Position numbers and translations under genes: made by a program. The notes beneath the pieces were generated by a model. It was not told where the DNA came from and ran no database searches. It worked only from the letters and a program-made list of their open reading frames with translations. This document shows positions 15,413-50,862 of a DNA stretch of 64,000 nucleotides, one piece after another. Origin of the DNA: Verrucomicrobia bacterium UBA6982 (GTDB lineage Bacteria > Verrucomicrobiota > Kiritimatiellia > RFP12 > UBA3636). The stretch lies in contig DJYI01000139.1 of assembly GCA_002448475.1 (NCBI GenBank), positions 19,732-83,731 of the forward strand, in the 5' to 3' direction. Numbering within the stretch: the first letter of the stretch is position 1; the number at the start of each line of letters is the position of its first letter.

Positions 15413-16060
15413 ATGCGGATGTTCGCCGACGCAATCTCGGCGGTAGGGCTTCGCGGTGCGACGATTCTCGACGTCGGCGGAACGCGCGCCTACTGGGAAA
15501 ACTGGGCGCACATGCTCCCGCCCGGCGCCGTCGCTCGGATCGATGTCGTGAACCTGCCGGGACAGATGGGCGATCTTGCGGGTCGGACGCTCGAAATCGC
15601 AGGACTCCCTGTTCGCTTCATTGCTGCGAACTTACTCGACGGCCAATTCCACGCCCTCGACGCGCGCTACGACGTCGTCCACTGCATTTCCGTTATTGAG
15701 CACGTCGGCGACGCCGCCGCGCAGCGCACCTTCGCGGACGCCCTCCGCCGCCTCGGCGACCGTCTCTGGGTCCAGACCCCGGCCAAGGAGTTTCCCCTCG
15801 AAGCGCACTTCCGCCTCCCCTTCTTCGCCTGGTGGCCCCTCCCCCTTCGTGCCTTCTTCAACTGGCGCTTCCGCCTTGGCGTCATGCCCCGCCACCGCTC
15901 CTGGCCCGAGGCCGTCGCCTTCTGCCGCTCCACCCGCCTCCTCACCCGCCGCGCCTTCTCCCGACTCTTCCCCTCCTGCAGCCTCTGGACCGAGCGCGTC
16001 CTCCTCCTCCCCAAGTGCTACGTCGCATCGTCCATTGCCCCATCCGCCCGAATCTGCTAG
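15413..16060 (+). CDS. Class I SAM-dependent methyltransferase
   Basis: ILDVGGTRAYWE is motif I (like LDVGCG), and ...YDVVHCISVIEHV... is the post-II motif typical of MT_11/12. The start is the ATG at 15413 (MRMFADAIS). The upstream 44 codons of the ORF are unlikely to be translated. Confidence 0.6.
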   Translation: MRMFADAISAVGLRGATILDVGGTRAYWENWAHMLPPGAVARIDVVNLPGQMGDLAGRTLEIAGLPVRFIAANLLDGQFHALDARYDVVHCISVIEHVGDAAAQRTFADALRRLGDRLWVQTPAKEFPLEAHFRLPFFAWWPLPLRAFFNWRFRLGVMPRHRSWPEAVAFCRSTRLLTRRAFSRLFPSCSLWTERVLLLPKCYVASSIAPSARIC

Positions 16061-16307
16061 AATCACGCCCCGTGACGCCAATTTCCACCAGCAAGTTCAC
16101 GTTTTCCGACCCTTATCGGGAGGGATGCATCCATGTCGACTCGCGCCACCCCTTCTCCGGCGCCCGCGTCATCCTCGTCGCCGCCGGCTTCTCCCCCAAG
16201 ACCCGCAATCTCGTCCGCCCGAAAAGCGAGACCATGGCATGCCCCTGCGACATTCCGGCTTCGCCCTGCGGATGCTCCATGGTGCCAAGTCTGATCGAAT
16301 AAACTGC

Positions 16308-17624
16308 ATGTCAACATCCCGACCATCATTCTGTTGCTCTTGCGGCGCTTGTGCCTACCTTTCAGGCAATCCAACGGCGCGCATGGTTCCGTCCCGCGAA
16401 GGACCGCGCCCCTGCGTCGACGACTCCTCGCAAGGGGCGCTCGACCATTCGGTCTGTCCGGGCGTCGGCATCGACTATCCGCGCCTCTATGAGGTACACT
16501 ACGGCCGCCATCCCGACAACTGGCTCACCGGCATCGTCCAAAAGGTCCGTACAGGCCATGCCGCCGATCCGACAATCCGCCTCGCCGGCGCATCGGGCGG
16601 CGTCTTGACGCGCGTGCTCCAGTATCTGCTCGAGACCGGGCGCATCGACGGCGCCGTTGTCGCCAAACAGGGTATCCCGTCCCCGATGGAGGCCTCCGCC
16701 GTCATTGCGACGACGCCGCAGGAGGTGCTGGACTGCGCCGGTTCTGTTTACATTCAGGTTCCGATGATTCCAGCCCTCGCCCGGTTCGAGCCCGGCAAGC
16801 GCTATGCGTTTGTCGGCACGCCGGAACAGACAGCCGTCCTCCGAGAGCTCCAGCGCCGCGGAGATGCACGTGCCCGGCAGGTCGCGTTCGTCCTCGGCCC
16901 TTACACGGGCACGGCCCTCTCCCCTCGCGCCCTCGAATACTATCTTCGGTCCAACAAGGTCGCGAAGGAGGATCCCGTAACGTCGGTGCAATGGCGCGCG
17001 GGCAAATGGCCCGGGTATCTGGAGATTCAGACGAAATCCGGCGTCATCCTCCGCTCGCCGAAGGTCTACTACAACTTCCTCATCCCGTTCTTCGTCACCG
17101 ACACGTCACTCCTCTCGCGCGACTTCTGCAACGAGTTCGCCGACCTCGCCGTCGGCGACGCCTGGTCGCCGAAGTTCGAGAACGCCGGCGAGGGCGGCGT
17201 TTCGGTCGTCGTGACGCGCACCCCGGAGATGGAGACGGTCATTGCCGAAATGTGCAACAAGGGCCTTCTCGCGCTTGAAGAGGCCGATCCCGCAAAAGCG
17301 GGCGACATGCACGGCCACATGCTCGACTTCAAGAAACGCGGCGGCTACCTCCGCGGTCGAATGCGTCGCTTCTTCGGCCGCCCAGCGCCGGACTACGGAT
17401 ACCGTCCCGCGCGCATCGCCTTCCCGCGCCGCGCCGTCGAGCTCATCATCTCCTCGGTCTTCTTCCTCTGCCGCTCCGCCCCGGCCCGGTGGATTGTCTG
17501 CCGGATTCCCGAACGCATCCTCGGCCCCTTCTTCAACTGGATGAGGCTCCGTTGGAAGGCACTCTCCCGCCCAACCAAGCGCAAAGGGCTGGCCCAGTAC
17601 GACGTGATCATCACATCCCGCTAG
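16308..17624 (+). CDS. Coenzyme F420 hydrogenase/dehydrogenase beta-subunit-like Fe-S protein (FrhB/FdhB family), the kind that accompanies polysaccharide pyruvyl transferases
   Basis: An N-terminal Cys cluster (CCSCGACAYLS) followed by an FrhB_FdhB-like body. It is the C-terminal part of the 682-aa ORF 15576..17624. The start is the ATG at 16308. In-frame ATGs at 16239 and 16272 are alternatives. Confidence 0.6.
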   Translation: MSTSRPSFCCSCGACAYLSGNPTARMVPSREGPRPCVDDSSQGALDHSVCPGVGIDYPRLYEVHYGRHPDNWLTGIVQKVRTGHAADPTIRLAGASGGVLTRVLQYLLETGRIDGAVVAKQGIPSPMEASAVIATTPQEVLDCAGSVYIQVPMIPALARFEPGKRYAFVGTPEQTAVLRELQRRGDARARQVAFVLGPYTGTALSPRALEYYLRSNKVAKEDPVTSVQWRAGKWPGYLEIQTKSGVILRSPKVYYNFLIPFFVTDTSLLSRDFCNEFADLAVGDAWSPKFENAGEGGVSVVVTRTPEMETVIAEMCNKGLLALEEADPAKAGDMHGHMLDFKKRGGYLRGRMRRFFGRPAPDYGYRPARIAFPRRAVELIISSVFFLCRSAPARWIVCRIPERILGPFFNWMRLRWKALSRPTKRKGLAQYDVIITSR

Positions 17625-17669
17625 CGCCCGCCGCCACCCTTCACATTTCACCCTTCACTCTCCACGCTT

Positions 17670-19277
17670 GTGACCGCAGACTTTCGCCATCTTCTCTCCG
17701 ATTTCCTCCCGCGCATTCTCTCGCAGTGCTGCCGGGATGCGAACAGCCCCGCCTTCGGATGCTTCGACCGAAACTTCTGGCACTACCGAATGCGGGATTT
17801 CGCCTCGATCATCCTCCAACAGGGCGGCTACACGGTCCTGCAGGCCCAACGGGCGCTTCCGGGCGGCCCGCTCACGGAGTCGTTCGCCCGTTCGATCGCC
17901 GCCGGAGCCTGCCGATTCTGGAACCGCCGCGCCGCTCGCCACGGCGCCTTTGAGGAATACTATCCCTGGGAACAGGGCTATCCTCCACTCGCCTTCTCTT
18001 CCCTCGCCGTCGCCAAGATGGTCGCCGCCGGCGTCTGCGCCGCCGGGGACGTCGACCGCGGTCTCCGAAAGGCCGCGCGCCAACTTGCCGCCCGTTTCGA
18101 GCCAAAGGCCGCGAATCAGCAGGTCGCCGGCCTCGCCGCGCTCGCGTGGATTCGAAAAATCCGCCCCGACCTCGTTTCCGACCGCGCCTTCGCCCGCCAG
18201 AAAAAGCGCACGCTCACCCTGCAGACGGACGAAGGATGGTTCTGGGAATACGACGGTCCCGACGCCGGCTACCTTTCCGTCACGATCGACTGCCTCTGGG
18301 ACCTTTTCGACGCCACCGGCGACGCGGATTTCCGCACCTCTGCCGACCGCGCTCTCGCATTCCTCCATCGGGTAATCGCCGTGCCCGGTCGTGCCCCCGG
18401 TATGCTCAACGCCCGCAACACCGACTATGTCGTTCCCTACGGCATTGCCCGCTACCTTAATAACGGAACCGACATCCAGCGTCGCCTCGCCGGGCAGCTC
18501 CTCGCCGCGCTCTACGCCGATCTCCCGTCGCCAGCCCATTTCTTCCGCGCCGTCGACGACCGCTATCTCTGCCACTACATCGGCCACTCCATCGCCAGAG
18601 CCATCCTGGAGCTGGAAAAAGCCGAACGCTCCGCCCCTGATTCGGCCGCGCCCGAAGCGCCAGCCCGCGAAGCCTTCGACCTCCCCCTCGCCGGCTACGT
18701 CTTCCGACCGGGCTTTGACGGCGCCCCCGACCTCTTCCTCGCGCTCAAGAAGGGCGGCTGCCTCCGCGCCTCCCTCGGCGACGCCTCCGCGCTCGACTTC
18801 GGCTGGATTGTCAAGACCGGCAGGAAACAGTTCGTCACGCACTGGTGGAGCCGCGACTGGACCCTCTCCTCCGACGGCGCCTCGTGGACCATTCGCGGCC
18901 CGCTCGCCCCGCACAAGGAGCTCGACTCGACGCCCTTCAAGCACTTCGGCCTCCGCATCGTCTCGTTCCTCTTCGGCAAATCCGTCATCGGACTCCTCAA
19001 AAACGTCCTCATCTTCAAGAAGACGAAGAGCCCCTACGCCTTTGAACGCACCGTTTTCCTCGACGGAGGTGCCGTCCGGATCGAGGACCGCATCGACGGC
19101 CTGACCGGTTCCGAAACCGTCCTTCCCGCGCCCCGCGCCTCCAAGCGCCATGTCGCCTCCGCCGACAGTTTCCACGCCGAGGACGTCGCCCTCTCCCACA
19201 GTTTCGCCGCAAAGAGGGAAACCCGCATGGAGAACGGATCTTTCACCGTATCCACCGCTCTTTCTCGCAATCTTTGA
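17670..19277 (+). CDS. Hypothetical soluble protein (535 aa) in the polysaccharide locus
   Basis: A long ORF with coding-like composition, co-directional with the FrhB-like gene. I recognise no motif. It has a GTG start. Confidence 0.45.
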   Translation: MTADFRHLLSDFLPRILSQCCRDANSPAFGCFDRNFWHYRMRDFASIILQQGGYTVLQAQRALPGGPLTESFARSIAAGACRFWNRRAARHGAFEEYYPWEQGYPPLAFSSLAVAKMVAAGVCAAGDVDRGLRKAARQLAARFEPKAANQQVAGLAALAWIRKIRPDLVSDRAFARQKKRTLTLQTDEGWFWEYDGPDAGYLSVTIDCLWDLFDATGDADFRTSADRALAFLHRVIAVPGRAPGMLNARNTDYVVPYGIARYLNNGTDIQRRLAGQLLAALYADLPSPAHFFRAVDDRYLCHYIGHSIARAILELEKAERSAPDSAAPEAPAREAFDLPLAGYVFRPGFDGAPDLFLALKKGGCLRASLGDASALDFGWIVKTGRKQFVTHWWSRDWTLSSDGASWTIRGPLAPHKELDSTPFKHFGLRIVSFLFGKSVIGLLKNVLIFKKTKSPYAFERTVFLDGGAVRIEDRIDGLTGSETVLPAPRASKRHVASADSFHAEDVALSHSFAAKRETRMENGSFTVSTALSRNL

Positions 19278-19312
19278 TTTTATGTCCGCTCCCGTCTTCT
19301 TCCGCACACGAG

Positions 19313-20449
19313 ATGACTACCATGAGTTTGGCAAGTGACATTTCAATCAATAATGGACAGCCAATGGGAGGCCCTTCCCAGCTGGATGCCACGAGTCGGG
19401 ATGTCAACACACACATTTTTGGAATTGATATACTACGAATCGTAGCCATGCTAATGGTCATTTCCCTGCACATTCTTGAACATGGTAGAGCCTTTGACAG
19501 TCTAGGATCAAGCAATTGGGTCAACAAGCTTGCGCGATGTTTTCGCGCCGAACACTTGTGTGCCGTAGACTTGTTTATGGCGACTACCGGATGGCTCCTA
19601 GTAAAGAAACCGTTTCGTCTCAAAAGATTGTCCGAACTAGCAATTCAAGTTTTCTCCATTTCACTAATCATCCGGATTGTTGCTCTTGTTTTTTTTGAAC
19701 AAAGGGTTTCGTGGTTGTCATTTTTCGCGGATTCCTGGTATTGGAATTGTTACATAACCATTATCCTGCTCTCCCCTATTATCAATATCGGATTGCAAGG
19801 ACTCCATTCCGCATGGAAGAAACAATCCGGATGGATTCTTCTCGCATGTCTTGCCGCATCAATCTATCTCTTACCATTCAAAGTGGAAAAATCATCCCCA
19901 GGATACAGTGTTGTTTGGATGCTGGTATGCTATCTGTTTGGCGCTTGGAGTCGACTGTCTATTGGGATTATTCGGAATTCTGCTACTCGTTGGACCATTG
20001 AAGCCATCGCCTTGTTGCTCCCCATTCTTGCCGTAGGAATTTCATATGGGCTCCTACTGATTGGAGTGAAGGCGTTTTCCCTCGCCGAGCACTATCATTC
20101 CCCACTGATTTTAGGATGTGCCCTTTGTCATTTGCTTTTTTTCACAAGCATTCCAATCACTCGGCTTCCGAAGTTACTCCGTTTGGCAGCAGACGTCTCA
20201 TTTGGTGTCTACCTGATACATGAGAACCCTATTGCTCGAGTCTGGTACCTGAACGATCGGTTCAGTTGCCTTGAAACAAGCTCGTTCTTGGATTTCGTTG
20301 TTTGTATCTGGACTGCTGCGATAATCATCTATCTGTGCTGTGCTGTTTTGGAATTAATTCGGTTTCTCCTTTTCAAACTGTTAGGGCGGACATTATCTGC
20401 GCTCAAGCAATCCTTCCAACCAACAAATCGCTGCTTGCAAACCAACTGA
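19313..20449 (+). CDS. Acyltransferase family 3 membrane O-acyltransferase (paralog 1 of 5)
   Basis: GIDILRIVAMLMVISLHI (the AT3 N-terminal signature) and a multi-TM, Phe/Leu-rich body. It sits in a low-GC segment. The start is the ATG at 19313. Confidence 0.7.
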   Translation: MTTMSLASDISINNGQPMGGPSQLDATSRDVNTHIFGIDILRIVAMLMVISLHILEHGRAFDSLGSSNWVNKLARCFRAEHLCAVDLFMATTGWLLVKKPFRLKRLSELAIQVFSISLIIRIVALVFFEQRVSWLSFFADSWYWNCYITIILLSPIINIGLQGLHSAWKKQSGWILLACLAASIYLLPFKVEKSSPGYSVVWMLVCYLFGAWSRLSIGIIRNSATRWTIEAIALLLPILAVGISYGLLLIGVKAFSLAEHYHSPLILGCALCHLLFFTSIPITRLPKLLRLAADVSFGVYLIHENPIARVWYLNDRFSCLETSSFLDFVVCIWTAAIIIYLCCAVLELIRFLLFKLLGRTLSALKQSFQPTNRCLQTN

Positions 20450-20490
20450 AGTCTGAGAATGTTCACCTCGGACCACATCTAGAAGAAGTT

Positions 20491-20934
20491 ATGCAGACCC
20501 ATGTCATAATGCGCCTTCCCGCCCTCCTCCGCAAACTCTTTCTCTTCCTCGCCGTGGGACTCCCGGCGTTTCTCGTCGCATTCCCGCTCAACTTTCTCCT
20601 CGTCGACCGGTGCGGACTCCCGAAGGCGCTCGCCTACGCGTTCGTCCTCGTCGTCCAGGTCAACATCAACTTCCCGCTCTGCCGCTGGCTCGTCTTCGAC
20701 CCGGCTCCTGAAAAGTCCGTCTGGCAGCAATATGCCGAGTTCATGGGAGCCGTCGCCTTCTTCCGAGGACTCGACTGGCTCTTCTACACGTTCTGCGTCG
20801 AAGCATTCCGATTCCCCCTTGTCATCGCGGGCAAAGACTGCTATTATCTCGCCTACCAGCTTGCCAACGTCGTCATCTTCTCCCTCGCCAAGTTCGTCTT
20901 CTGCCGCCGCGCCATCGAAGGAAGCCGCCCATGA
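20491..20934 (+). CDS. GtrA-like small membrane protein (putative polyprenyl-phosphate-sugar flippase)
   Basis: About 147 aa with 4 TM segments; MRLPALLRKLFLFLAVGLPAFLVAFPLNFLLV... is the GtrA family pattern. Its 3' end forms an ATGA overlap with the next gene. Confidence 0.65.
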   Translation: MQTHVIMRLPALLRKLFLFLAVGLPAFLVAFPLNFLLVDRCGLPKALAYAFVLVVQVNINFPLCRWLVFDPAPEKSVWQQYAEFMGAVAFFRGLDWLFYTFCVEAFRFPLVIAGKDCYYLAYQLANVVIFSLAKFVFCRRAIEGSRP

Positions 20935-21869
20935 AGCTCTTCATCCAGATCCCCTGCCTCAACGAAGAGGCCACGCTTCCGCAGACGCTCGCCGACCTGC
21001 CGAAGCAGATCGACGGCATCGACGAGATCGAGGTGATGGTCGTCGATGACGGCTCGACCGACCGCACTGTCGAGGTCGCACGCGAATGCGGCATAAAGCA
21101 TATCGTATCCCATGGCAGCAACCGCGGCCTCGCCGCCGCGTTCTCCTCCGGCCGAGACTACGCTCTCGCCCACGGGGCAGACATCCTCGTCAACACCGAC
21201 GCCGACAACCAGTACTGCGGCGCCGACATCGCCAAACTCGTCGTCCCGGTCCTTGAAAACAAGGCCGACATCGTCGTCGGATGCCGCCCCATCGTCGACA
21301 ATCCGGAATTCTCCCGCGTCAAGAAGCTCCTTCAGCTCTGCGGCAGCTGGGCGCTTCGCCGCATCTCCAAGACGACCGTCCGCGATGCCCCCTCCGGCTT
21401 CCGCGCCTTCTCCCGGAACGCCCTCTCCCGCATCTTCCTGCACTCCCGGTTCTCCTACTGCATGGAGACGCTCATCCAGGCGGGTACGACCGGCATGCGC
21501 GTTTCCTCGGTCGACATCCGCGTGAATCCCAAGACGCGCGACTCGCGCCTCTTCAAGTCCATTCCCCAGTATCTGCGCAAGACCGGCGGCACGATGCTCT
21601 CGATGTTCGTCCTCTACCGGCCCGGCGCGTTCTTTTCGCTGCTCTCCGCACCGTTCTTCCTCCTCGCCGCAATCCTGGGCTTCCGCTTCCTCCTCCTCGT
21701 CTACGCATTTCCCGCCCCCGCCCGCACCCATCTGCCATCACTCATTCTCCTCGCCATCTCCGCCTTCGCCGGTCTGCTCTGCCTCCTTCTCGCCGTCCTC
21801 GGCTCCCTCCTCGGCGCCAACCGCCGCCTCGCCGAGGAACAGATATACCTTCTCCGGAAAAAGCCATGA
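20931..21869 (+). CDS. Family 2 glycosyltransferase, GtrB-like polyprenyl-phosphate glycosyltransferase
   Basis: The GT-A N-domain reads ...EVMVVDDGSTDRT...VNTDADNQY... (DxD), and there is a C-terminal 2-TM tail, as in GtrB/DPM synthases. Confidence 0.75.
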   Translation: MKLFIQIPCLNEEATLPQTLADLPKQIDGIDEIEVMVVDDGSTDRTVEVARECGIKHIVSHGSNRGLAAAFSSGRDYALAHGADILVNTDADNQYCGADIAKLVVPVLENKADIVVGCRPIVDNPEFSRVKKLLQLCGSWALRRISKTTVRDAPSGFRAFSRNALSRIFLHSRFSYCMETLIQAGTTGMRVSSVDIRVNPKTRDSRLFKSIPQYLRKTGGTMLSMFVLYRPGAFFSLLSAPFFLLAAILGFRFLLLVYAFPAPARTHLPSLILLAISAFAGLLCLLLAVLGSLLGANRRLAEEQIYLLRKKP

Positions 21870-23437: not shown

Positions 23438-23462
23438 GCCAAACACGAAATTGATCACAACC

Positions 23463-26440: not shown

Positions 26441-26458
26441 AACCTGCCAAACGAAACA

Positions 26459-28246: not shown

Positions 28247-28295
28247 CCCCATTGCCATGATCACAAACCACGCGATGACTCCCGACAGAACCAAT

Positions 28296-29555: not shown

Positions 29556-29626
29556 GAAACACTTGACACGATGATCTATACCCCCAAGTCCTTCTTGTAA
29601 TTGATATCAACATCTTTGCGAACACG

Positions 29627-30022: not shown

Positions 30023-30094
30023 CCTGAAACTCCCCACTCCAGACCACGGTAGCGCCACCTGCGGATTCTGTGTAACAACTCAAGTCACGCTGAT

Positions 30095-32979: not shown

Positions 32980-32986
32980 GTGTTTA

Positions 32987-36814: not shown

Positions 36815-36826
36815 GGAGAAGACCTT

Positions 36827-37726: not shown

Positions 37727-37728
37727 GT

Positions 37729-42080: not shown

Positions 42081-43224
42081 GTCTGAAAATCCTTTCGTAA
42101 AACCTGAAATGGGCGGCAGCAACAACAGAGGGAGACATGTATGAACGAATTCTACTTCGAGCCTCTTCCGCCACAGACATATTGTAGGATTCAGCAAAGA
42201 CTGAGATCAACACTCGGGCTATGGCGGCGGCATCCCGTTGTGGGACAACAGTCGCGTTTCCAAATCGTCGGGCGTTCTCGGCAAGGGCAGTTCCTTCTGC
42301 GACGACACCATGGCACCCACGCATGAGTCCTTCAATCAACTGGTTGCCAAACATCTCTTCAAGCGAGGGAGCAACGATAACGCGACAATGATCAAGAATA
42401 GAAAACAATTCTCGCGAGGAAACTCGCCCGTGCAAAAACAAGGAGTCTCCAAGTACCAAACGCAGATCCCGAAGGCACCTACCAGCGGCTCCCTGTGCAT
42501 TATTCTCGGAAGGATTCCCCATGACGTGCAATTGCAAGTCTGGAATAACCCTAATCACATTTCGCAAAGCATCAACAAGATACTTTACTCCCTTGCGTTC
42601 GTCCATTGTCCCCACATATGCAACCGCATGGCCGGATCGCGGCACGAGGGGTCCGTCGAGCCTGGGTTCGTAGGTGTTCGGGATCAGCGTCAGGTCCAGA
42701 TGCGGATACTGCCTTGCAAGGGCTTCTTTCACATATTCGCTTTTTGCCACGACGAAGCGAGTTTTCCGAAGGACCATGTCCTCACCCCAGCGCAGGAATC
42801 GCTCGTTCCAAGTCGGCGCGCGGCCAAGTGCCGGGAGAATCTGGAAAAATAGCCCCTGAGCCGTGATGCAAAAGGGGAGCCCGGAGCGAATCGCCGCATG
42901 TCCGTAGGCGGCTTCTGTACCATGAGCATGAACCACGGTAGGAGCTAGTATTCGAACGAGACGAGCCATGCGCCAGGCATCAAGCGCATAAAACGTAAAC
43001 TGGCGATAAGGATGAAAGGAGCGGAGGAAATGAACAGGAATCCCCTCGATTTCGCAGTCAAAATCGCAAGTAGCCTTGTGGGCTTGAGATATGATCGAGA
43101 CATCTATCCCAGCCGCTTTCTGCGCAAGGGCGTGATTCAAGACCCACCGACCAGGATGTTGCTTAACTTGCTTACTCCTAATGTCGTCAGGAACTGGGAC
43201 ACTCCCTAGATGGACAATTTTCAT
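42073..43224 (-). CDS. Family 4 (GT-B) glycosyltransferase
   Basis: MKIVHLGSVPVP... plus ...EEMFGNQLIEGLMRGCHGVVAEG... (EX7E). The ATG at 43224 forms an ATGA overlap with the upstream stop. The ORF's 51 upstream codons are probably not translated. Confidence 0.7.
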   Translation of the reverse strand: MKIVHLGSVPVPDDIRSKQVKQHPGRWVLNHALAQKAAGIDVSIISQAHKATCDFDCEIEGIPVHFLRSFHPYRQFTFYALDAWRMARLVRILAPTVVHAHGTEAAYGHAAIRSGLPFCITAQGLFFQILPALGRAPTWNERFLRWGEDMVLRKTRFVVAKSEYVKEALARQYPHLDLTLIPNTYEPRLDGPLVPRSGHAVAYVGTMDERKGVKYLVDALRNVIRVIPDLQLHVMGNPSENNAQGAAGRCLRDLRLVLGDSLFLHGRVSSRELFSILDHCRVIVAPSLEEMFGNQLIEGLMRGCHGVVAEGTALAENARRFGNATVVPQRDAAAIARVLISVFAESYNMSVAEEARSRIRSYMSPSVVAAAHFRFYERIFRHV

Positions 43225-44657
43225 AAGGCGGCATCCCTGTTTTGTCGCTGATACCCGCGAACAACAGCAATCATCAAGGCATAACTCGGATACCACGACA
43301 TTAATGTTTTGGAAGAGTGACCTGATGTATAGGAAAACAATACTGAAACCAAACAAGACATCGCCAAATATATGCAAAACGACGGCAAATAAACCCCCGT
43401 GGTTACAATTTTACAGGCCCGAATCGCATACAAAACCATGTGAGCGGTAAAAACAAACCACAGCAACATGCAAGGCAATCCGAAATCGGCGGCGTAGGCA
43501 TACCAAGTGCTATGCCAGTTTCCCGAAGTGCCATGCCCTTCCCCTGCGACTGTTTCAAGATGGGTGGACAGTCGCCAAACCGTTTCCTCAGTATCCATGG
43601 AAAATCCCTTTCGGCCCAACCATGGATTTTTGCGTATAACGCTCCTGGCATATTCGCGCAATTCCATTCTGAACAGGTCGGACATCCCTCCATATTCTTC
43701 TGATGCCTTGTATTTTGGGAATACAACAGCAAGGGCACGAGTTGCAGATTTTGGAAGCATGTAAAGATGCCCATCACCAGCAACTGCGCACAAAATCACA
43801 ACCGCTCCGAACAACGCCATGCAACACGTGATGAATTTGTCTTTCCCCCTAATGAACGACGCAAAAAACGGAACTACGAGAATCGTTCCAAACGCCCTTC
43901 GCTTGCCAGAAAGAATGGCAAGCGCCGCCGTAAGAATGACAAAGAACAATTTCGGCAACGAATTCAGAATTGTCAAAAGAGGATACCGGGAAAAGACCAA
44001 AGTATAAAGCGTTGCACACGGAACAAGCCAATATCTCACTCTCAGACCATCCCCTGTCAACGCGGAATCATCATTATCCACTTCGTCTAAACCTATGAAA
44101 TTCCGGCACAATGAAAAAAGAACGCCGTAGAAGGTCAAAAAAAACAACATTTTGGCATCGCGTTCAGTAAAACGTCTAGATGCCAAAGCAAAAAACGCAA
44201 GGAACCCGAGCAATATCTGGAGATAGAACCGGCTTCCTATTGTTGAACTGCCGAGAATTGCAAGTCCGGGAGGATTCAAGCAAAATACGAAAAGCATCCA
44301 GCAAAAAGGTGGTATTACCCAGAATGTGTCTTTGTCAATGGAAACGGAAGAATCACGATGGAGCCCGACTCTGATGAAATGAACACAGGAAACGGAAAGG
44401 CACGCCAATTCATTTCTGCTGAAGGGTATTCCGGAAATTGAAGGGGCGAAGAACAAAATGAGCGGATATAAAAGCCAATACTTGTCGTTTAAGGCCAGAA
44501 CAATCCAGGTGAAAACGACAAACGCGGCAGTGATCTTCAAATTAGTTGAAGACCCCGACATTGCAGACTTCACGGCGAAAAGCGCGAAAACCACTAGTGC
44601 CATTCCGAACACCAGTCGCTGAATTCGCTGCTTGTAGGCTGCGGAAGGATTGGTCAT
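43221..44657 (-). CDS. Wzy-like O-antigen/EPS polymerase or O-antigen-ligase-family membrane protein
   Basis: 478 aa with about 10-12 TM segments and a large periplasmic-type loop in the C-terminal half. It sits in an AT-rich segment (~45% GC). It is the first gene of the minus-strand operon. Confidence 0.55.
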   Translation of the reverse strand: MTNPSAAYKQRIQRLVFGMALVVFALFAVKSAMSGSSTNLKITAAFVVFTWIVLALNDKYWLLYPLILFFAPSISGIPFSRNELACLSVSCVHFIRVGLHRDSSVSIDKDTFWVIPPFCWMLFVFCLNPPGLAILGSSTIGSRFYLQILLGFLAFFALASRRFTERDAKMLFFLTFYGVLFSLCRNFIGLDEVDNDDSALTGDGLRVRYWLVPCATLYTLVFSRYPLLTILNSLPKLFFVILTAALAILSGKRRAFGTILVVPFFASFIRGKDKFITCCMALFGAVVILCAVAGDGHLYMLPKSATRALAVVFPKYKASEEYGGMSDLFRMELREYARSVIRKNPWLGRKGFSMDTEETVWRLSTHLETVAGEGHGTSGNWHSTWYAYAADFGLPCMLLWFVFTAHMVLYAIRACKIVTTGVYLPSFCIYLAMSCLVSVLFSYTSGHSSKTLMSWYPSYALMIAVVRGYQRQNRDAAL

Positions 44658-44838: not shown

Positions 44839-45774
44839 ATGAAGCCCAGCGAAATTGTTCATCGGGGAAGTCCCGCTTCCCTTGCGGTTCTCGTCAACAC
44901 CTGCGACAAGTTCGAAGACTGCTGGAGACCATTCTTTGTCCTCTGGAATAAATTCGGTCTGAAAACGATCAACCACACGGTCTATCTGAACACGGAGCGC
45001 AAATCGTTCGACTCGATGGGTGGTTCCATCCACTCCCTGCGAGTCTGCGATACCAACGACTGGACCGGACCGAAGCCACCGACCTGGAGTTGGTGTCTCG
45101 AAAAGGCTCTCGACTCCATTCCGGAGGATTTCGTCCTCTATCTGCAGGAAGACTACTTTCTGACCGCTCCGGTCAACGAGGCCAGGCTAGCAGACCTTCT
45201 GCGCTGGATGGCCGCTCATCCCGACGCAGGTTGCGTCCGCATCGACTGCGCCGGCAAGTCCACGCCTGGCCCTGAACCCGGTCTTCGGACCTGTGATCCG
45301 AAGTGGTGGTATTTCGTGACCTGCCAAGCCGCAGTCTGGCGCAAGGATGTCCTGCGCGGACTTATTCGCGAGCATGAGGACGCTTGGCAGTTCGAACGGT
45401 GGGCGTCGAAACGCGCGCGAATGATCGGATGCCACTTTTTCGCACTTGAGCCAGAGAGTGGCCTCTGGCCCGCCCAATATCTGAAGACGGGGGTCATTCA
45501 AGGGAAATGGTTTGAACCCGTAGTGCCGCTCTTCCGGAAGCACGGCATCGCGATGGATTTCTCGCAACGCGGGTTCTACGAGGGTAAATACGGGCGGAGA
45601 AACGGCCGTCCTTTCGCATGGCTATTGGCCTTTCTTCTCTATAACGCCAAGGCCTTTGTCTTTCGATACTTTTTGCCATGGTCCAGCTTCCGCGAAATTG
45701 TCGAATTGCGCTTCCATTCGACGATTCCGTCAACGCCACCCCATAATCCAAAGACAGACCAAAGGTTCGCCTAG
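44839..45774 (+). CDS. Hypothetical protein, possibly a GT-A-like glycosyltransferase of an uncharacterised family
   Basis: A coding-like ORF, with its start at the ATG at 44839 (MKPSEIVHRG...). ...FVLYLQEDYFL... looks like a DxD-type motif. The call is weak. Confidence 0.4.
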   Translation: MKPSEIVHRGSPASLAVLVNTCDKFEDCWRPFFVLWNKFGLKTINHTVYLNTERKSFDSMGGSIHSLRVCDTNDWTGPKPPTWSWCLEKALDSIPEDFVLYLQEDYFLTAPVNEARLADLLRWMAAHPDAGCVRIDCAGKSTPGPEPGLRTCDPKWWYFVTCQAAVWRKDVLRGLIREHEDAWQFERWASKRARMIGCHFFALEPESGLWPAQYLKTGVIQGKWFEPVVPLFRKHGIAMDFSQRGFYEGKYGRRNGRPFAWLLAFLLYNAKAFVFRYFLPWSSFREIVELRFHSTIPSTPPHNPKTDQRFA

Positions 45775-45788
45775 TATCTATTGCCTGC

Positions 45789-46826
45789 ATGGAAATCAAA
45801 CACTCGTTCCGGCTCGCCTGGCTTGATGACATCAAGGGATTCGCCATGCTATGCGTGGTGATCCAACACGCCTTTTTGAATCCGCCATGGGGTCGTTACT
45901 TGTTTCTTGGATCAGTCCCTATATTTTTCGTCGCTGCCGGGTTCACGACTACGTCTATGACCTCCGAACAGATTTCAAGAAAAGCAAAACGACTGCTCGT
46001 TCCGTACTTCGTATATGCGGTCGGCCTTGGACTGATCGCCCTCGGTGCTACCTGCTGGAAAAACGGCTCGGGTGCGGACTTCGGCCACCGCATCCTTCTT
46101 CTGCTTTCCGGCATTGCTTATGGAAGACATTCTGTATTCAGAGACGGCAGCGGAATCGGGCTGAATCACTTTGGGATCGCGCCATTATGGTTTCTCCCGG
46201 CTCTTTTTCTTTCGTTTGTCCTGTTGTTCCTCTTCGACAAGTTGCCGAAGTGTCTGCAATTCCCGTATACGATAGGGCTTCTTGCCGGAACGATCCTCGC
46301 AACCCGATTACAAATCTATTTGCCATGGAGCATTGATCTAGCGCCGATCGGAATGTTTCTCCTTGCAACCGGTCGGTTTTTGCGAAAGACGACTGCTCCA
46401 ATTCAAACAGGATTTCCTTTTGTCGATTGTTTTGTATGGCCAGCTTGGGCGTTTCTCGCTCGCACAAATGGTTTTCCGGTTTCGTTTTTCAATGGACAGT
46501 TTGGCTCGCATGGAATGGCAAGCCTCGCCGCTTACGTATTGTTAGCCGTCACTGAATTTGTCCTTCTCGCCAGACTCCTGAACAACACCCACGGAGGGAA
46601 GCTTTTCTTTGTTCCGTTTAGGGCACTCGGGAAGAATTCTCTCGTCTTTCTATGTTTTCAGCTGTTCATCATCAACGCTTGCGAACTGGCATTGGGGAAC
46701 TCGCCGGGGAGTAACATTTCTGTCGGTTTGATCAAAAGTTTGGTCACTATTGTATTCTGCTTGCTCGCTGCGCGTTTGATATTTAGACTTGGAAAAACCG
46801 TCCCTTTCTTCAAATTGCTGGGATAA
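45789..46826 (+). CDS. Acyltransferase family 3 membrane O-acyltransferase (paralog 4)
   Basis: ...LAWLDDIKGFAMLCVVIQHAF... (the AT3 signature) and a multi-TM body. Confidence 0.65.
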   Translation: MEIKHSFRLAWLDDIKGFAMLCVVIQHAFLNPPWGRYLFLGSVPIFFVAAGFTTTSMTSEQISRKAKRLLVPYFVYAVGLGLIALGATCWKNGSGADFGHRILLLLSGIAYGRHSVFRDGSGIGLNHFGIAPLWFLPALFLSFVLLFLFDKLPKCLQFPYTIGLLAGTILATRLQIYLPWSIDLAPIGMFLLATGRFLRKTTAPIQTGFPFVDCFVWPAWAFLARTNGFPVSFFNGQFGSHGMASLAAYVLLAVTEFVLLARLLNNTHGGKLFFVPFRALGKNSLVFLCFQLFIINACELALGNSPGSNISVGLIKSLVTIVFCLLAARLIFRLGKTVPFFKLLG

Positions 46827-46830
46827 TAGC

Positions 46831-47889
46831 ATGAAATCGACCAAAACAACATCATATCGGATCGCCGCTTTCGATGTCTTGCGAAGCATTGCTCTCTTCG
46901 GCATTGTCGCCGTTCATGTCTGCTATTCCTTTCCAGACAATTCGTTCCGCCGCGCCGGGCAGCAACTGGGAGGAACCTTCAACGCTGTATTTCTTCTGTT
47001 GTCTGCTCTTTTGACGGGGTTGGCGAACAAACACATCAAGGAGTCCCCCGCTCGTTTTCTCGCCCGTCGAGCCTTGCGAGTGGGAATTCCGCTTTGGATT
47101 TTTCTTGTGTTTTTTTTCGTTGCCGCCATTGCTTGGACAGACACTACGATCCCGGCTGCAAAGGCCGTGGCCGAGTTCGCATTCCTTGGTTGGCCCGTGA
47201 AACTCCCTGGCCTAGGGCATCTTTGGTTTGTAACGCTCATTCTTCTTTGCTATGCACTAGTCGTTATCCTCGACCACAACCCGGCCCTCTTTGATGGGGC
47301 TCGGAAGGAAGGCTTCATCTTCCTTGCGACCATTACAACATCGTTGCTATTCGACCAGTGGAATATCCCAGCAGTACAAGCCCCGCTTTATCTGTTTTTT
47401 TTCGGTTTCATCTGGAAACACGCGACTGCCATCTTCTCGCTTGCAAAACGATCCATGACCAGAACCGCGTCTGCGATAATCGCGACGGCGGCATTCGTTA
47501 CTTTGCAAATTGGCAGCGCCATAGCATTCCAGCGCGGCTTATGGGACAAATCGCAGATGGGAGCGTATGTTCTGGGGTTGGTCGCGGGAATGTCCTGGAT
47601 CATTTTCGTAATTGGCCTATTGGAACGGGCTTCCATTCCACACATCGTTACGAAACTGTTCTCGACAATCGCGATTATTAGCTATGAGGCATATCTTGTC
47701 CACAACCCGTTCACGCGAATTCCGTTTCCGATCCACAAATCGTTGGGTCTCGACTCGTTCCTGGCCCGCTATTTATTCGTCCTAATCGTCTCTCTGTTAC
47801 TGGCCGGAGCCTTGCATGAAATCGCCACCTACACTCGCACCATCCTTTCAAGGTGGCAAAATCATGCCGGACCTTCACGATTCCCATGA
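46831..47889 (+). CDS. Acyltransferase family 3 membrane O-acyltransferase (paralog 5)
   Basis: ...YRIAAFDVLRSIALFGIVAVHVCY... (the AT3 signature) and a multi-TM body. The start is the ATG at 46831, 5 nt after the upstream stop. Confidence 0.65.
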   Translation: MKSTKTTSYRIAAFDVLRSIALFGIVAVHVCYSFPDNSFRRAGQQLGGTFNAVFLLLSALLTGLANKHIKESPARFLARRALRVGIPLWIFLVFFFVAAIAWTDTTIPAAKAVAEFAFLGWPVKLPGLGHLWFVTLILLCYALVVILDHNPALFDGARKEGFIFLATITTSLLFDQWNIPAVQAPLYLFFFGFIWKHATAIFSLAKRSMTRTASAIIATAAFVTLQIGSAIAFQRGLWDKSQMGAYVLGLVAGMSWIIFVIGLLERASIPHIVTKLFSTIAIISYEAYLVHNPFTRIPFPIHKSLGLDSFLARYLFVLIVSLLLAGALHEIATYTRTILSRWQNHAGPSRFP

Positions 47890-49121
47890 AAAGACACTTT
47901 GGCCAGAAGACCATAATAGCACCTTGCCTTTTTCTCCCACGTAAAATTTCTTTGAACATGTGAAACGGCCGATTTTGACATTTCCGAACGCAAACCCGGT
48001 TCACACAATCTTCGGAATGACTCCGCCATCTTCTCCACGACCTGTTCCTTAGGCCCAACGGATATCCGAAATCCAGCCGATTCCGGCACTTGCGTTGCTG
48101 GCCCACCCCAGTCCAAACATACAACAGGGAGTCCCGCCGCCATTCCTTCCAGACATGCCCAACCGCCAGAATCGTGCATACTTGGATGAACCAAAACGTC
48201 AGCGGAATGCAAATGGCGAAGTGCCACATCACGCGGAAGATTTCCGAGAATGCGAACATGATCGGAAACACCAAGCTTTTTGCAGAGCATCTGCAACTTG
48301 GCTCGCTCCGGTCCATCGCCAATCAATTCAAGTTCAGAATCATTGATGCCAGCTCGGGCGAACGCCTCGACAGCCAAAGCGTACCCTTTCCAGGCAACTA
48401 GTCGTCCCAAGCAAATAAAGCGAAGTCCCTTGTGAAAAACCTTTCCTGCGTCAAGACGCCGGATGTCGGCATTGGACAACGCGGACTCACCCAAGATGAA
48501 AACTTGTGATGAACTGCCACGCACCACACTGCATCTATCAGCAGACACTTTTGTCGTGGCTAGAACAATAGAAGCATTCTTCAGTGTCCCCCTTGTTCCG
48601 GGAGTCCATTCCGAGAAAAATCGGACCAATCCGCGAATTGTTTCAAAAAGACGACCTCGTATCGGCAGACAATTCCGAAGCTGTTTGGGGGTGAACTCAG
48701 CACCGCCGACGGGACCAAGCACATACGGTATCCCGGAATTTGCAAGGCAACTACGTCCCCAATACCTTACAAATGTCACGTGTTGGGCGGCATCAAACCT
48801 TTCCAGCTCATGCAAACGACGGACCTCCTTGCCGGCCATCGCTTGCCAGAACTGGTAGTGGAGCCTGATTTTCCACTCTGTCGGATTTCTCCACACATAG
48901 CGTGCAAAAGGAACTTCAAAAAAATGGAAACGGAGATTGTCCGCAACACGGCCAGCTTTGATTTCCTCTTCTATGTTCGAACGGCATTCCGATTGGGTAA
49001 GAACATGAACTTCGCAGAAAGCCGCCAACGCATTGGCAACGTTCCAACCTACGCCCGGCTCGGAACCGCGTCCTGGCCCACAGGCATAACTGGACAAAAG
49101 GATCTTCAAGCGTTTCGTCAT
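47862..49121 (-). CDS. Family 4 (GT-B) glycosyltransferase
   Basis: MTKRLKILLSSYACGPGRGSEPGVGWN... and ...CLEGMAAGLPVVCLDWGGPATQV... (EX7E-type). Confidence 0.7.
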   Translation of the reverse strand: MTKRLKILLSSYACGPGRGSEPGVGWNVANALAAFCEVHVLTQSECRSNIEEEIKAGRVADNLRFHFFEVPFARYVWRNPTEWKIRLHYQFWQAMAGKEVRRLHELERFDAAQHVTFVRYWGRSCLANSGIPYVLGPVGGAEFTPKQLRNCLPIRGRLFETIRGLVRFFSEWTPGTRGTLKNASIVLATTKVSADRCSVVRGSSSQVFILGESALSNADIRRLDAGKVFHKGLRFICLGRLVAWKGYALAVEAFARAGINDSELELIGDGPERAKLQMLCKKLGVSDHVRILGNLPRDVALRHLHSADVLVHPSMHDSGGWACLEGMAAGLPVVCLDWGGPATQVPESAGFRISVGPKEQVVEKMAESFRRLCEPGLRSEMSKSAVSHVQRNFTWEKKARCYYGLLAKVSFHGNREGPA

Positions 49122-50014
49122 GGTATTGATGGCCCGTGTGACGGATCTTGATCTTGCACGTCAGACGGGAACGATGAAACGGCATCATCTTTCCACCAAG
49201 CTCGAAAAGCGTGGTCGGTGATTCTCTTCTCCGGAGGAGGAGGAGTCATGTAATCGCCGTAAACAGAAGTCAGATACTCCTTCCACCCTGACATGACGCA
49301 TCGGGACTCTCCTTCAAAGGGAACTGTTGCCCATCCCGCATAAATGGAACTCGGAAAAATCTCCCGAATCCCGTACCCCCAAACTGCACAACCAACGAAT
49401 GGTGCTCCTTCAAACGATGTTTGGGACGCTTTCCTGCTGAACAACGGAAGAATCAACCGACTTGGAAGACGACGCACGGCCAACGGAATCAATTTGAAGG
49501 GGAGACAAAGCGAGAGAAACAACTGGCGCCGAAAGGACCGTTTTTTGTTGAATGGAGAGCAGTTCTGAAAAACAAGACACCCCCAAACCACTTTTTTCAT
49601 CCGAATGATTCGGCGAGGCGTTTCGTTATTGTCGGGAAACCCGTCCAAGGGGAAAACATCAAGGAAAACACCAAGTTGCAAATGTCGATATGAATCTTCG
49701 ATCAAGACGGTTCTTTCATCGCAGACTTTCGCAAAGGGGTAACAATACTTGCTGTCATTCTCATGGCAATGGAGCGCATAGCGGTCAGAACGGAACTCAC
49801 GGCAAAACCGTTCGTAATCGGGGCGTGGCATTGCAATGTCAATATCGTCATCCCAAGGAATAAAACCTTTGTGTCGGATTGCCCCGAGAAGGGTTCCACC
49901 ATACAGCGTGTAACGAAGTCCGTTTTTGACGCAGAAGGCATGAACCTCGGAAAGGATGCCTTTCTCAATGTTCTGAATCTCTTGTGTGGAGGAAATCGTC
50001 TTCATGTTCGTCAT
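49118..50014 (-). CDS. LicD-family phosphotransferase, copy 2
   Basis: ...STQEIQNIEKGILSEVHAFCVKNGLRYTLYGGTLLGAIRHKGFIPWDDDIDIAMPRPDYERF... aligns position by position with the pneumococcal LicD N-terminus. The start is the ATG at 50014 (MTNMKT), where the TAA stop of the upstream gene overlaps it by 1 nt. An in-frame ATG at 50074 is an alternative. Confidence 0.75.
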   Translation of the reverse strand: MTNMKTISSTQEIQNIEKGILSEVHAFCVKNGLRYTLYGGTLLGAIRHKGFIPWDDDIDIAMPRPDYERFCREFRSDRYALHCHENDSKYCYPFAKVCDERTVLIEDSYRHLQLGVFLDVFPLDGFPDNNETPRRIIRMKKVVWGCLVFQNCSPFNKKRSFRRQLFLSLCLPFKLIPLAVRRLPSRLILPLFSRKASQTSFEGAPFVGCAVWGYGIREIFPSSIYAGWATVPFEGESRCVMSGWKEYLTSVYGDYMTPPPPEKRITDHAFRAWWKDDAVSSFPSDVQDQDPSHGPSIP

Positions 50015-50862
50015 TAGCTCAAGTAGAGTTTGCCCTCGGTGAAAACACGACTGACAATCAGACAATGTCGCCATCGTCGTCCTATGCGCGCCAGAATGCG
50101 ATAAACGATACGCTCCCTTTTTTGAAGAAACCGAGGAAGTGGATAGTACGATCTTCGAATCTGATCATATTCGGCCCATCTGGTTTCTCTATACACGGTT
50201 GAAACGTTCGAGTCGTGAATCGCGAATGCTCCGATTACGCCGGGCACAAAGTGAAACCTATAACCGGCTTTCGCAAGCCGACAGTAGTATTCGCCGTCCA
50301 TGATGACCTTATAGGACGGATCAAGATAGTGTCCGGAATCAATCGCTCGACGGCGCCAAAAAGACGAACAGGAAGCAATCGTAACAGACGAAACGGCCAT
50401 GACAAAAAACGAGAACCTATGGGAATGCTTGACGCGAATCGGGCACCCATCTTCCGAAACGAAAAGAAAGTCGCCGTAAACAAAATCGGCCTTGGGGTGC
50501 TTTTCGAGGAAGTCGGCGACGAGGGAGAACTTGCCGGGAAGATAGTATTCGTCCGCGTTGAGCCAGGCGACAACGTCGCCCGTGGCGCGGCGAAGGCCCT
50601 TGTTGATCGCGTCGGTCTGGCCCTTGTCGGGCTCGGAAACGTAGGAAAAGGAATAGCGGCCGTCCTTCGCGGCCGGCTGCGCCGCCGCGGAGGTGGCCCA
50701 ATCCTTGAGGATCTGGACGGAGTCGTCGGTCGAGCCACCGTCTATGACGATGTGCTCAATCGCCGGTGCCCCCGGCGCGTCCGCCTGCGCGAGCACGCTT
50801 TCGAGCGCCTTCCTCAGGAAGCGCCCGTAATTGTAGTTCGGTGTAACGATGGAGAATTTCAT
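50014..50862 (-). CDS. Family 2 glycosyltransferase
   Basis: MKFSIVTPNYNYGRFLRKALESVLAQ...IVIDGGSTDDS... is a GT-A DxD N-domain. The start is the ATG at 50862, overlapping the upstream stop as ATGA. Confidence 0.7.
   Translation of the reverse strand: MKFSIVTPNYNYGRFLRKALESVLAQADAPGAPAIEHIVIDGGSTDDSVQILKDWATSAAAQPAAKDGRYSFSYVSEPDKGQTDAINKGLRRATGDVVAWLNADEYYLPGKFSLVADFLEKHPKADFVYGDFLFVSEDGCPIRVKHSHRFSFFVMAVSSVTIASCSSFWRRRAIDSGHYLDPSYKVIMDGEYYCRLAKAGYRFHFVPGVIGAFAIHDSNVSTVYRETRWAEYDQIRRSYYPLPRFLQKRERIVYRILARIGRRWRHCLIVSRVFTEGKLYLS

Follow-up and report, generated by a model that had tools for sequence, protein, structure and literature searches.

A probable composite surface-glycan locus, assembled by horizontal transfer, in a gut Kiritimatiellia bacterium

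Surface glycans govern the encounters of gut bacteria with phages and with host immunity, and in Kiritimatiellia, few of which have been cultured, they are almost unstudied. Several described systems make or modify such polymers: (i) Wzx/Wzy-dependent loci, as in the O-antigen clusters of Enterobacteriaceae, the capsular polysaccharide loci of Bacteroides and the cps loci of Streptococcus pneumoniae; (ii) GtrABC-type periplasmic glycosylation, known from the gtr clusters of Shigella and Salmonella phages and from mycobacterial PpgS/Rv3789/Rv3779; (iii) pathways that combine a cytidylyltransferase with LicD, such as LicC/LicD for phosphocholine and TagD/TarIJ for CDP-polyols; and (iv) phase-variable glycan O-acetyltransferases with homopolymers inside the gene, as in Neisseria and Haemophilus. 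Here we describe a locus that can be compared with each of these, at positions 15413-50862 of a 64,000-nucleotide stretch of Verrucomicrobia bacterium UBA6982 (contig DJYI01000139.1; the whole stretch is called the window). Probably it is a cell-surface glycan locus of a high-GC gut Kiritimatiellia, put together from pieces by horizontal transfer and built in two layers.

Like O-antigen and capsule clusters of the Wzx/Wzy class, the locus encodes a MOP-superfamily flippase, a Wzy_C protein, several glycosyltransferases of families GT2 and GT4, WecB, and modification enzymes of the acyltransferase-3 (AT3), pyruvyl transferase and LicD types; its GC lies below that of the genome, its structure is mosaic and its gene content differs among relatives. 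Unlike those clusters, it belongs to an uncultured Kiritimatiellia, carries unusually many AT3 genes (five, mutually unrelated), is joined to a conserved Gtr-type module, and is flanked by defence genes (AbiL, PDC-S01 and PDC-M42). A low-GC, mosaic and variable polysaccharide locus is in general textbook material and will not surprise specialists, and most of this one is of that well-known, horizontally shuffled kind. Two small gene sets in it are chemically uncharacterised: the module (FrhB/U535/GtrA/GT2) and a decoration cassette (aminotransferase/AT3/cytidylyltransferase-oxidoreductase/LicD). Both are compact and recurrent, and open to biochemistry. The locus also offers a coordinate-level example of glycan-locus diversification, with single-gene AT3 insertions and swapped decoration cassettes around a shared backbone.

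We propose that the two layers could work as follows. Layer 1 is a module of native GC, conserved across phyla and consisting of an FrhB-like flavo/Fe-S protein, the uncharacterised protein U535, GtrA and a GT2, with a large polytopic membrane protein added in close relatives. A lipid-linked monosaccharide would be built in the cytoplasm, possibly remodelled by FrhB and U535, flipped, and then added to a glycan outside the inner membrane; the remodelling might be a redox change or an epimerisation of a lipid- or nucleotide-linked sugar before transfer. Layer 2 would be a lower-GC Wzx/Wzy repeat-unit set, in which WecB, three GT4, one GT2, Wzy and the flippase supply the backbone. Its decoration would be interchangeable: AT3 O-acyltransferases, the two pyruvyl transferases, and two cytidylyltransferase/LicD pairs that may add phospho-linked alcohols. 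Strains and species would then differ mainly through cassettes that were gained, lost or swapped, and not through slippage at homopolymers.

Genes were delimited from open reading frames (ORFs), third-position GC (GC3) and gene calls on identical public contigs, and the larger ORFs of the window were scanned against Pfam (gathering scores) and NCBIfam (cut-offs); all enzymatic activities named here are predictions. The locus forms four tightly packed gene blocks, at 15413-30022 (+), 44657-30095 (-), 44842-47889 (+) and 50862-47862 (-) (Table 1). Pfam matches above gathering comprise five Acyl_transf_3 genes, two PS_pyruv_trans, two LicD, two GT2, three GT4 and one Wzy_C. Further genes encode one FrhB-like protein, a WecB-type UDP-GlcNAc 2-epimerase, a class-V aminotransferase, a MenD-like thiamine diphosphate (ThDP) enzyme, a short-chain dehydrogenase/reductase (SDR), and two TagD-like cytidylyltransferases, one of them fused to a Gfo/Idh/MocA oxidoreductase. 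A preliminary description of this DNA, made from the letters alone, had listed the same five AT3 genes, two pyruvyl transferases, FrhB-like protein, two LicD, GT2 and GT4 genes and Wzx/Wzy pair, and the family scans confirm it, with Wzx recognised through its homologues and a structural model. Four proteins, M595, M626, U374 and U535, had no family match in Pfam (E<=10) or NCBIfam.

Among species-representative genomes, the closest U535 matches (84%, then 61-64% identity) lie in Verrucomicrobia/Kiritimatiellia metagenome assemblies from human and animal gut. The flank of the locus encodes a MurC-MurB fusion and outer-membrane efflux (OEP) genes. Together these identify the host as a two-membrane gut Kiritimatiellia and refute a Gram-positive host (Bifidobacterium or Coriobacteriia), to which GC content and LicD might have pointed. 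The MurC-MurB gene (1979-4279, -) joins Mur ligase domains, FAD_binding_4 and MurB_C in a single ORF; such fusions are a known trait of Verrucomicrobia and agree with the placement.

From families and conserved gene order, we read 15.4-26.4 kb as a putative module for Gtr-type glycosylation in the periplasm that also includes two accessory enzymes. Its likeness to GtrABC systems lies in a GtrA-family gene that adjoins a GT2 best matching polyprenyl-phosphate sugar synthases, with a polytopic membrane protein directly after them in close relatives. In NCBIfam this GT2 (GT2a) comes nearest to AglJ, PpgS, dolichyl-phosphate hexose transferase and ArnC, and scores far under the cut-off of each; GtrA is 83-94% identical in loci L007, L009, L010 and L093 (L-numbers are our handles for compared loci). 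M626 homologues come after GT2a in L008-L011 and L093 and share invariant Asp/Arg in their first loops. Unlike known Gtr systems, the module is accompanied by an FrhB-like protein, which matches F420-hydrogenase beta-like chains in the PDB (E 3e-16), and by the lyase-fold U535, neither with a counterpart there; M626, its putative GtrC, falls outside all described families, and the module is not phage-borne but chromosomal, with conservation across phyla. Related three-component systems for pentofuranose have been described (PMC11127046); literature searches found no description of an FrhB/GtrA module.

We retrieved 80 U535 loci and counted gene order in the readable subsets (72 for FrhB, 70 for GtrA). 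An FrhB-like gene immediately precedes U535 in 51 of 72, 38 of 70 have GtrA within 2 kb, and a GT2a-type GT2 is present in 60 of the 80. U535 is itself an unannotated family with a two-domain lyase- or epimerase-like fold and 829 representatives at E<=1e-10; members occur in Bacteroidales, Sphingomonadales, Lentisphaerae, Desulfobacterota and others, nearly always by an FrhB-like gene and usually near GtrA and GT2. These neighbourhoods do not fit the earlier grouping of FrhB with the pyruvyl transferases, the nearest of which is 10.6 kb away in the window. Pyruvyl transferases do have such a partner in the relatives L089 and L103, but it is another protein, FrhB_C/Fer4, and this is probably what was meant. 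In L089-L092, a U535 of 91% identity has entirely different neighbours (GT2, MBOAT, ALGX and GT87). L089/L090 also encode, at 437-3439, a 601-aa Fer4, FrhB_C and Hexapep fusion directly before a pyruvyl transferase, with MBOAT and ALGX after it, a second and distinct FrhB-type partnership in the same lineage.

Two interruptions of the module are visible by alignment. L007, L093 and L094 align with the window up to 19187-19192 and again from 20509, so that the gap between U535 and gtrA, about 90-100 nt in relatives, is here 1,316 nt of 45%-GC DNA carrying AT3a; the segment also replaces the last ~28 codons of U535. It was found in none of the relatives aligned at this junction, and a tblastn search of phages and plasmids for a donor of AT3a gave matches of 26-29% only. 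Further on, GT2a and M626 are 66-280 bp apart in L008, L009 and L011, where the window has an ATPase gene and AT3b. The ATPase gene is absent from that position in these three loci; L093 has an unrelated 503-aa AF_1680 protein there, and L010 a 69% ATPase homologue on the far side of M626. AT3b has no homologue in L007-L011, L089 or L093, and none of the window's five AT3 genes has one in the 80 U535 loci. AT3a and AT3b, which we take to be foreign, and the ATPase gene are thus inserted into the native-GC module in this genome.

GC is 0.62-0.69 over the flanks (1-11.5 kb and 52-64 kb) and patchy between ~12 and 51 kb. In 1-kb windows it falls to 0.449 at 19.5-20.5 kb, 0.469 at 32-33 kb and 0.459 at 43.5-44.5 kb, and is native-like at 15.5-19 kb (0.64-0.67) and 20.5-23.5 kb (0.625-0.658), which bears out the alternation between about 45% and 65% noted earlier. 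Codon usage is not uniform either, in keeping with the mosaic that had been suggested. GC3 of 30 locus genes ranges from 0.45 to 0.86, against 0.71-0.92 in nine flank housekeeping genes, and is strongly heterogeneous (chi2 806, df 29, p 7e-151); the Karlin codon-bias distance to the native set spans 0.22-0.78. The methyltransferase, FrhB, U535, GtrA, GT2a, ATPase and M626 genes have native-like GC3 (0.77-0.86). The lowest values (0.45-0.54) belong to AT3a, the cytidylyltransferase-oxidoreductase, LicD1, WecB, GT4b, Wzy, AT3d, GT4c and LicD2, and the remaining genes are intermediate. Deviant composition and absence from sister taxa, two marks of a horizontally acquired genomic island, are both seen. 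Kiritimatiellia loci in our sample span 36-63% GC, which makes lower-GC members of the class plausible donors.

The Wzx/Wzy set includes a flippase assigned by its relatives and its fold. Homologues 38-46% identical to it carry PF13440 or PF01943, and its AlphaFold2 model (pLDDT 88.1) matches MATE, MurJ and WzxE in Foldseek (target-normalised TM-score 0.66-0.79 for those cited); together these place it in the MOP transporter superfamily. WecB reaches 485 bits with TIGR00236 (cut-off 210). Window 21.8-56.2 kb has no match in the closest species, L007, whose matched segments are 75-87% identical in nucleotides; there SNF2, a gene found at 56.2 kb in the window, comes within 200 bp after GT2a.

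Through a protein with 89% identity to the flippase we reached a related locus, present in several samples (L097-L102). There the backbone genes stand in the same order, with amino-acid identities of 44% for Wzy, 72% for GT4b, 78% for WecB, 78% for GT4a, 51% for LicD and 89% for the flippase. LicD abuts the flippase, and the window's 7.2-kb block 31648-38826 (pyruvyl transferase 2, SDR, MenD-like enzyme, aminotransferase, AT3c and cytidylyltransferase-oxidoreductase) is missing. Beyond the flippase L097 has an unrelated pyruvyl transferase, an unrelated AT3, and IspD with a 2-hydroxyacid dehydrogenase in place of the TagD-like gene; pyruvyl transferase 1 of the window is unrelated in sequence both to this pyruvyl transferase, in the same position, and to pyruvyl transferase 2. 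One unrelated AT3 occupies the position of AT3d/AT3e. The shared backbone genes have GC 0.62-0.66 in L097, compared with 0.51-0.58 in the window. The locus is therefore not conserved among related species, and the piecemeal assembly put forward in the preliminary description gains direct support from three sides: the breakpoints around AT3a, the lack of 21.8-56.2 kb in L007, and the same backbone with other decoration genes in L097-L102.

The gene order of the cassette (aminotransferase, an AT3 of the AT3c type, a TagD-like cytidylyltransferase with or without Gfo/Idh/MocA, LicD) is absent from L097 and recurs in three other contexts. In L087 it has GC 0.57. In L103/L104 (GC 0.46) it comes after a homologue (59%) of pyruvyl transferase 2 and a Fer4/FrhB_C protein, which in L103 replaces the SDR and MenD-like genes. 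In L105/L106 (GC 0.47) it lies beside a phosphoenolpyruvate (PEP) mutase-cytidylyltransferase fusion, a Ppd-like ThDP enzyme and an Fe-ADH, which are phosphonate-tailoring genes of the kind described for CMP-phosphonates (PMC6697681). The aminotransferase is 74-81% identical across contexts that differ in GC from 0.46 to 0.57, an observation that suggests wide exchange among gut bacteria; it is very similar to 3f0h in the PDB (E 7e-135), an unannotated entry named "aminotransferase". The MenD-like enzyme (568 aa) passes TIGR00173 marginally (253.2 bits against a cut-off of 244.2) and matches PDB MenD chains at E 1e-43. The window has no men genes; the neighbours of the enzyme are the aminotransferase, SDR, pyruvyl transferase and LicD, and literature searches found no description of a MenD/LicD combination.

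Like known cytidylyltransferase/LicD pathways, the locus has TagD-like PF01467 enzymes and LicD proteins in pairs, and the L105/L106 cassette sits by a PEP mutase-cytidylyltransferase fusion. Unlike them, one cytidylyltransferase is fused to Gfo/Idh/MocA and partnered with a class-V aminotransferase, and the cassette holds two inserted genes, for a MenD-like ThDP enzyme and an SDR. The stand-alone cytidylyltransferase, to judge by its family, probably makes CDP-glycerol. An oxidoreductase paired with an aminotransferase, beside a cytidylyltransferase and LicD, suggests a CDP-activated amino-alcohol phosphate: CDP-glycerol might be oxidised and then transaminated to a donor of the CDP-2-aminoglycerol ("CDP-serinol") type, a term not found in the literature searched. 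A 2-aminoethylphosphonate pathway was set aside as the main interpretation. No PEP mutase, the entry enzyme of phosphonate synthesis, was found in the larger ORFs of the window, which makes phosphonate the weaker alternative; the ThDP enzyme is MenD-like and not of the phosphonopyruvate decarboxylase type, and the aminotransferase scores well below the PhnW/AepZ cut-off. Given the phosphonate genes beside the cassette in L105, we keep it as a minor alternative. Synthesis of a branched sugar of the yersiniose type, which uses a ThDP enzyme and a reductase, was also dropped, as no CDP-hexose pathway genes were found. Taken jointly, the proposals that the cassette makes and installs a new CDP-activated amino-alcohol phosphate and that FrhB/U535/GtrA/GT2 constitutes a new five-component Gtr-type variant are speculative, and we doubt that the pair will hold. 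More broadly, two PS_pyruv_trans, two LicD and two TagD-like cytidylyltransferases make it reasonable to predict the pyruvyl and phospho-substituents foreseen in the preliminary description, the latter derived from CDP-alcohols.

All five AT3 proteins match PF01757 with 62-129 bits against a cut-off of 31; they are polytopic, ~340-380 aa long, and have no SGNH domain. They had been called paralogs, a term that the pairwise comparison does not support: every pair, adjacent AT3d/AT3e included, gives BLASTP E >= 0.02 and ~22-27% identity, and by this measure the five are neither recent paralogs nor tandem duplicates. Five unrelated AT3 genes in one locus are unusual, and fit repeated independent acquisition. 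Among the stand-alone AT3 enzymes that have been characterised, most are acetyltransferases. The number of AT3 genes bears on possible acceptor sites, not on acyl donors, and the five therefore predict up to five acylation sites rather than the "at least three kinds of O-acyl groups" expected earlier.

Homopolymers in the AT3 genes had been another theme of the preliminary description, which assigned a run of at least 8 nt to every AT3 gene except AT3d. This holds for AT3a (T8), AT3c (C11 and T8 on the coding strand), AT3e (T8 at 47110 and at 47395) and for the exception, AT3d; it fails for AT3b, whose longest run is 6, with none of 7 or more. Three of the five genes thus carry such runs. The region as a whole has 11 runs of at least 8 against 6.8 +/- 2.6 expected from a local first-order Markov model, and as 8% of simulations reach 11, the excess is not significant. 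With the count within expectation and two AT3 genes without a tract, homopolymers are not a general property of these genes. Codon shuffling singles out only AT3c and AT3e (p~0.003 each). Across ~17 codons between its two tracts AT3c is out of frame relative to homologues, which read SLGLALQEGIVDAGKLA there, and the window's +1 frame restores the homologous sequence; DNA alignment places a +1 change at the T tract and a -7 change at the C tract. On this alignment AT3c carries a compensated double frameshift that leaves the ORF intact.

The layered reading has to be weighed against one in which two or three independent systems merely adjoin, with the Gtr-type module (15.4-26.4 kb) acting on lipopolysaccharide core, lipid A or another polymer and the Wzx/Wzy set (28-51 kb) making a separate polysaccharide; each polymer would then bear fewer decorations than the preliminary description assumed. 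Many genomes have the module with none of the window's Wzx/Wzy genes nearby, in L007 it stands alone between PDDEXK_2 and SNF2, and the four transcription blocks differ in composition. L009, L011 and L093, however, again embed the module among Wzy, GT4, GT2 and WecB genes, and a neighbourhood that recurs in this way suggests functional coupling. We regard independence as possible, though we lean away from it. Other observations weigh against the layered reading itself. No initiating phosphoglycosyl transferase (Bac_transf or Glycos_transf_4) was found in the scanned larger ORFs of the window, though one may lie elsewhere in the genome; unlike known Wzx/Wzy clusters, these ORFs also include no Wzz, Wzc or Wza, and there is no clear WaaL ligase. 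The Wzy_C protein has no NCBIfam match and scores 35.3 bits (cut-off 31.7) with PF04932, a model that covers WaaL ligases too. With no priming transferase, chain-length regulator, exporter or clear ligase, the Wzx/Wzy route is a tentative assignment, and the polymer may be O-antigen, capsule or exopolysaccharide. For M626, Pfam gave no match and a PDB profile search was empty, and its assignment as a GT-C transferase is that of a candidate only. The insertion borders have no integrase, tRNA or insertion sequence element, and no repeats flank the island; the window's only tRNA is at 1798-1874, and the left border has just a PDDEXK_2 gene. Finally, the comparisons are between related species; contigs with the window's own proteins are all 100% (or 99.99%) identical to the window, and a seeming difference in L002 proved to be the end of a contig.

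The other rivals concern how the locus varies and how its mosaic arose. Antigenic variation by slipped-strand phase variation at AT3 homopolymers would resemble the Neisseria and Haemophilus cases in that AT3c has a long in-frame C11 whose change in length would switch the gene off: C10 in its place brings a stop at residue 233. A run of at least 11 is unexpected there (codon-shuffle probability 0.002), and C11 and the nearby T8 mark two mutually cancelling past frameshifts, hence indels did occur at this place. Unlike those cases, the tract coincides with a fixed compensated frameshift, and no length polymorphism was observed: all available assemblies have C11, the protein collection holds no truncated near-identical forms, and a pattern scan of JGI metagenome contigs, where the organism may be absent, found no variants. 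It is also a single exceptional tract in the locus, the T8 runs fitting Phe-rich membrane proteins. Phase variation is thus a possibility for AT3c alone, and improbable as the source of variation in the locus. That the GC mosaic reflects amino-acid composition, weak expression or relaxed selection in membrane-protein genes, and not horizontal transfer, is very improbable. The hydrophobic Wzy and several AT3 proteins are indeed among those with the lowest-GC genes, yet GC3 spans similar ranges for membrane (0.46-0.80) and soluble proteins (0.45-0.86), so that amino-acid composition is not the cause: soluble enzymes reach equally low values (cytidylyltransferase-oxidoreductase 0.45, LicD1 0.48, WecB 0.49, GT4c 0.48), and the membrane proteins GtrA (0.81) and M626 (0.77) high ones. 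Low-GC AT3a is, moreover, physically an insertion, and the L097 orthologues of GT4b, WecB and GT4a have GC 0.62-0.66, as opposed to 0.51-0.56 in the window. An assembly or binning chimera joining DNA of different organisms is hardly credible. The source is metagenomic and abrupt GC changes coincide with gene borders; against this, an 83.3-kb ENA scaffold is collinear at constant offset on both sides of the junctions, 100% or 99.995% identical, and Logan and other contigs agree, although the agreeing assemblies may derive from the same or related samples. Genes on either side of a GC change also overlap or abut (for example 20931/20934, 21866/21869 and 24560/24587).

Table 1. Features of the glycan locus and the evidence for each (positions in the window)
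Feature	Position	Strand	Evidence and remarks
Methyltransferase-like protein (SAM-dependent)	15413-16060	+	Weak Methyltransf_25/23 (E 2e-5, below gathering); GC3 0.83; 215-aa gene call in L003
FrhB-like protein	16308-17624	+	PF04422 and PF04432 (FrhB_FdhB_N, FrhB_FdhB_C) above gathering; N-terminal Cys-rich motif CCxCxxC...CP; start 16308 or 16383
U535, uncharacterised conserved 535-aa protein	17670-19277	+	(alpha/alpha)6 toroid and beta-sandwich; lyase- or epimerase-like fold
Low-GC insertion with AT3a (19313-20449)	19193-20508	+	PF01757; GC 0.449, GC3 0.46, codon-bias distance 0.77; T8 at 19689-19696
GtrA-like small membrane protein	20509-20934	+	PF04138, 37.8 bits (cut-off 26.1); putative lipid-linked-sugar flippase
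GT2a, polyprenyl-phosphate sugar synthase type	20931-21869	+	PF00535; GtrB-, AglJ-, PpgS-like
AAA-type ATPase, non-glycan gene	21866-23437	+	Weak AAA_35/AAA_16 matches
AT3b	23463-24587	+	PF01757; GC 0.54; intermediate composition
M626, 626-aa polytopic protein	24560-26440	+	At least 8 predicted transmembrane segments; candidate GtrC-like (GT-C) transferase
M595, 595-aa polytopic membrane protein	26459-28246	+	GC 0.51; ~10 transmembrane segments; two T8 tracts
Pyruvyl transferase 1	28275-29555	+	PF04230, 47 bits (cut-off 25)
TagD-like cytidylyltransferase	29627-30022	+	PF01467; TIGR01518 E 7e-38, below cut-off
MOP-superfamily (Wzx-type) flippase	30095-31651	-	14 predicted helices; no Pfam/NCBIfam match of its own
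Decoration cassette	31648-35111	-	Pfam and NCBIfam; aminotransferase 34011-35111, AT3c 32987-34027, TagD-like cytidylyltransferase-Gfo/Idh/MocA fusion 31648-32979
AT3c tracts	33342-33400	-	C11 at 33342-33352, T8 at 33393-33400; ends of the out-of-frame stretch
MenD-like ThDP enzyme, SDR, pyruvyl transferase 2	35108-38826	-	MenD-like 35108-36814; SDR 36827-37726 (Pfam); pyruvyl transferase 2 37729-38826 (PF04230)
Backbone block LicD1, GT4a, WecB, GT4b, Wzy_C	38823-44657	-	Pfam; GC3 0.48-0.58; LicD1 38823-39725, GT4a 39727-40923, GT4b 42073-43224, Wzy_C 43221-44657
U374, AT3d, AT3e	44842-47889	+	PF01757 twice (AT3d 45789-46826, AT3e 46831-47889); U374 in no family, 54% homologue in L097
GT4c, LicD2, GT2b	47862-50862	-	Pfam; GT4c 47862-49121, LicD2 49118-50074, GT2b 50014-50862 (start 50862); right end of the glycan genes

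The locus sits within a variable, defence-rich region. Its left boundary has an AbiLi/AbiLii defence pair and the PDDEXK_2 gene, and its right boundary has the candidate defence genes PDC-M42/DUF3990 and PDC-S01/DUF4143, then a ZorD/DpdE-like SNF2 helicase. The left pair (12065-13986, +) is of AbiLi/AbiLii type, an AAA_21 ATPase with RloB, with GC 0.52-0.59 and PADLOC matches at E 7e-67 for AbiLi and 1e-11 for AbiLii. Three distinct AAA-type ATPase genes occur in or around the locus, at 21866-23437 (+; AAA_35/AAA_16), 52794-54095 (-; DUF4143) and 58925-60166 (+; ATPase_2). Each is absent or elsewhere in relatives, and all are of kinds common in gut bacteria.

The right border also bears traces of rearrangement. 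An 88-nt orphan copy (83%) of the 5' end of GT2b (50778-50865) lies at 52613-52700, a recombination scar marking the right border of the glycan genes. A desulfoferrodoxin gene and its upstream region are present in two ~95%-identical copies (52029-52597 and 54265-54829, -) that bracket the DUF4143/PDC-S01 ATPase gene, which looks like a duplication from that gene's insertion. Between the start of the DUF4143 gene and the desulfoferrodoxin gene, at 54134-54246, lie about five tandem copies of a 23-nt unit with a consensus near CGTTAGGCAATCTGGCGCCATTC. Within the locus, coding-strand GC skew is strongly negative (-0.10 to -0.26) across most of 15000-26500, despite the + orientation of the genes there.

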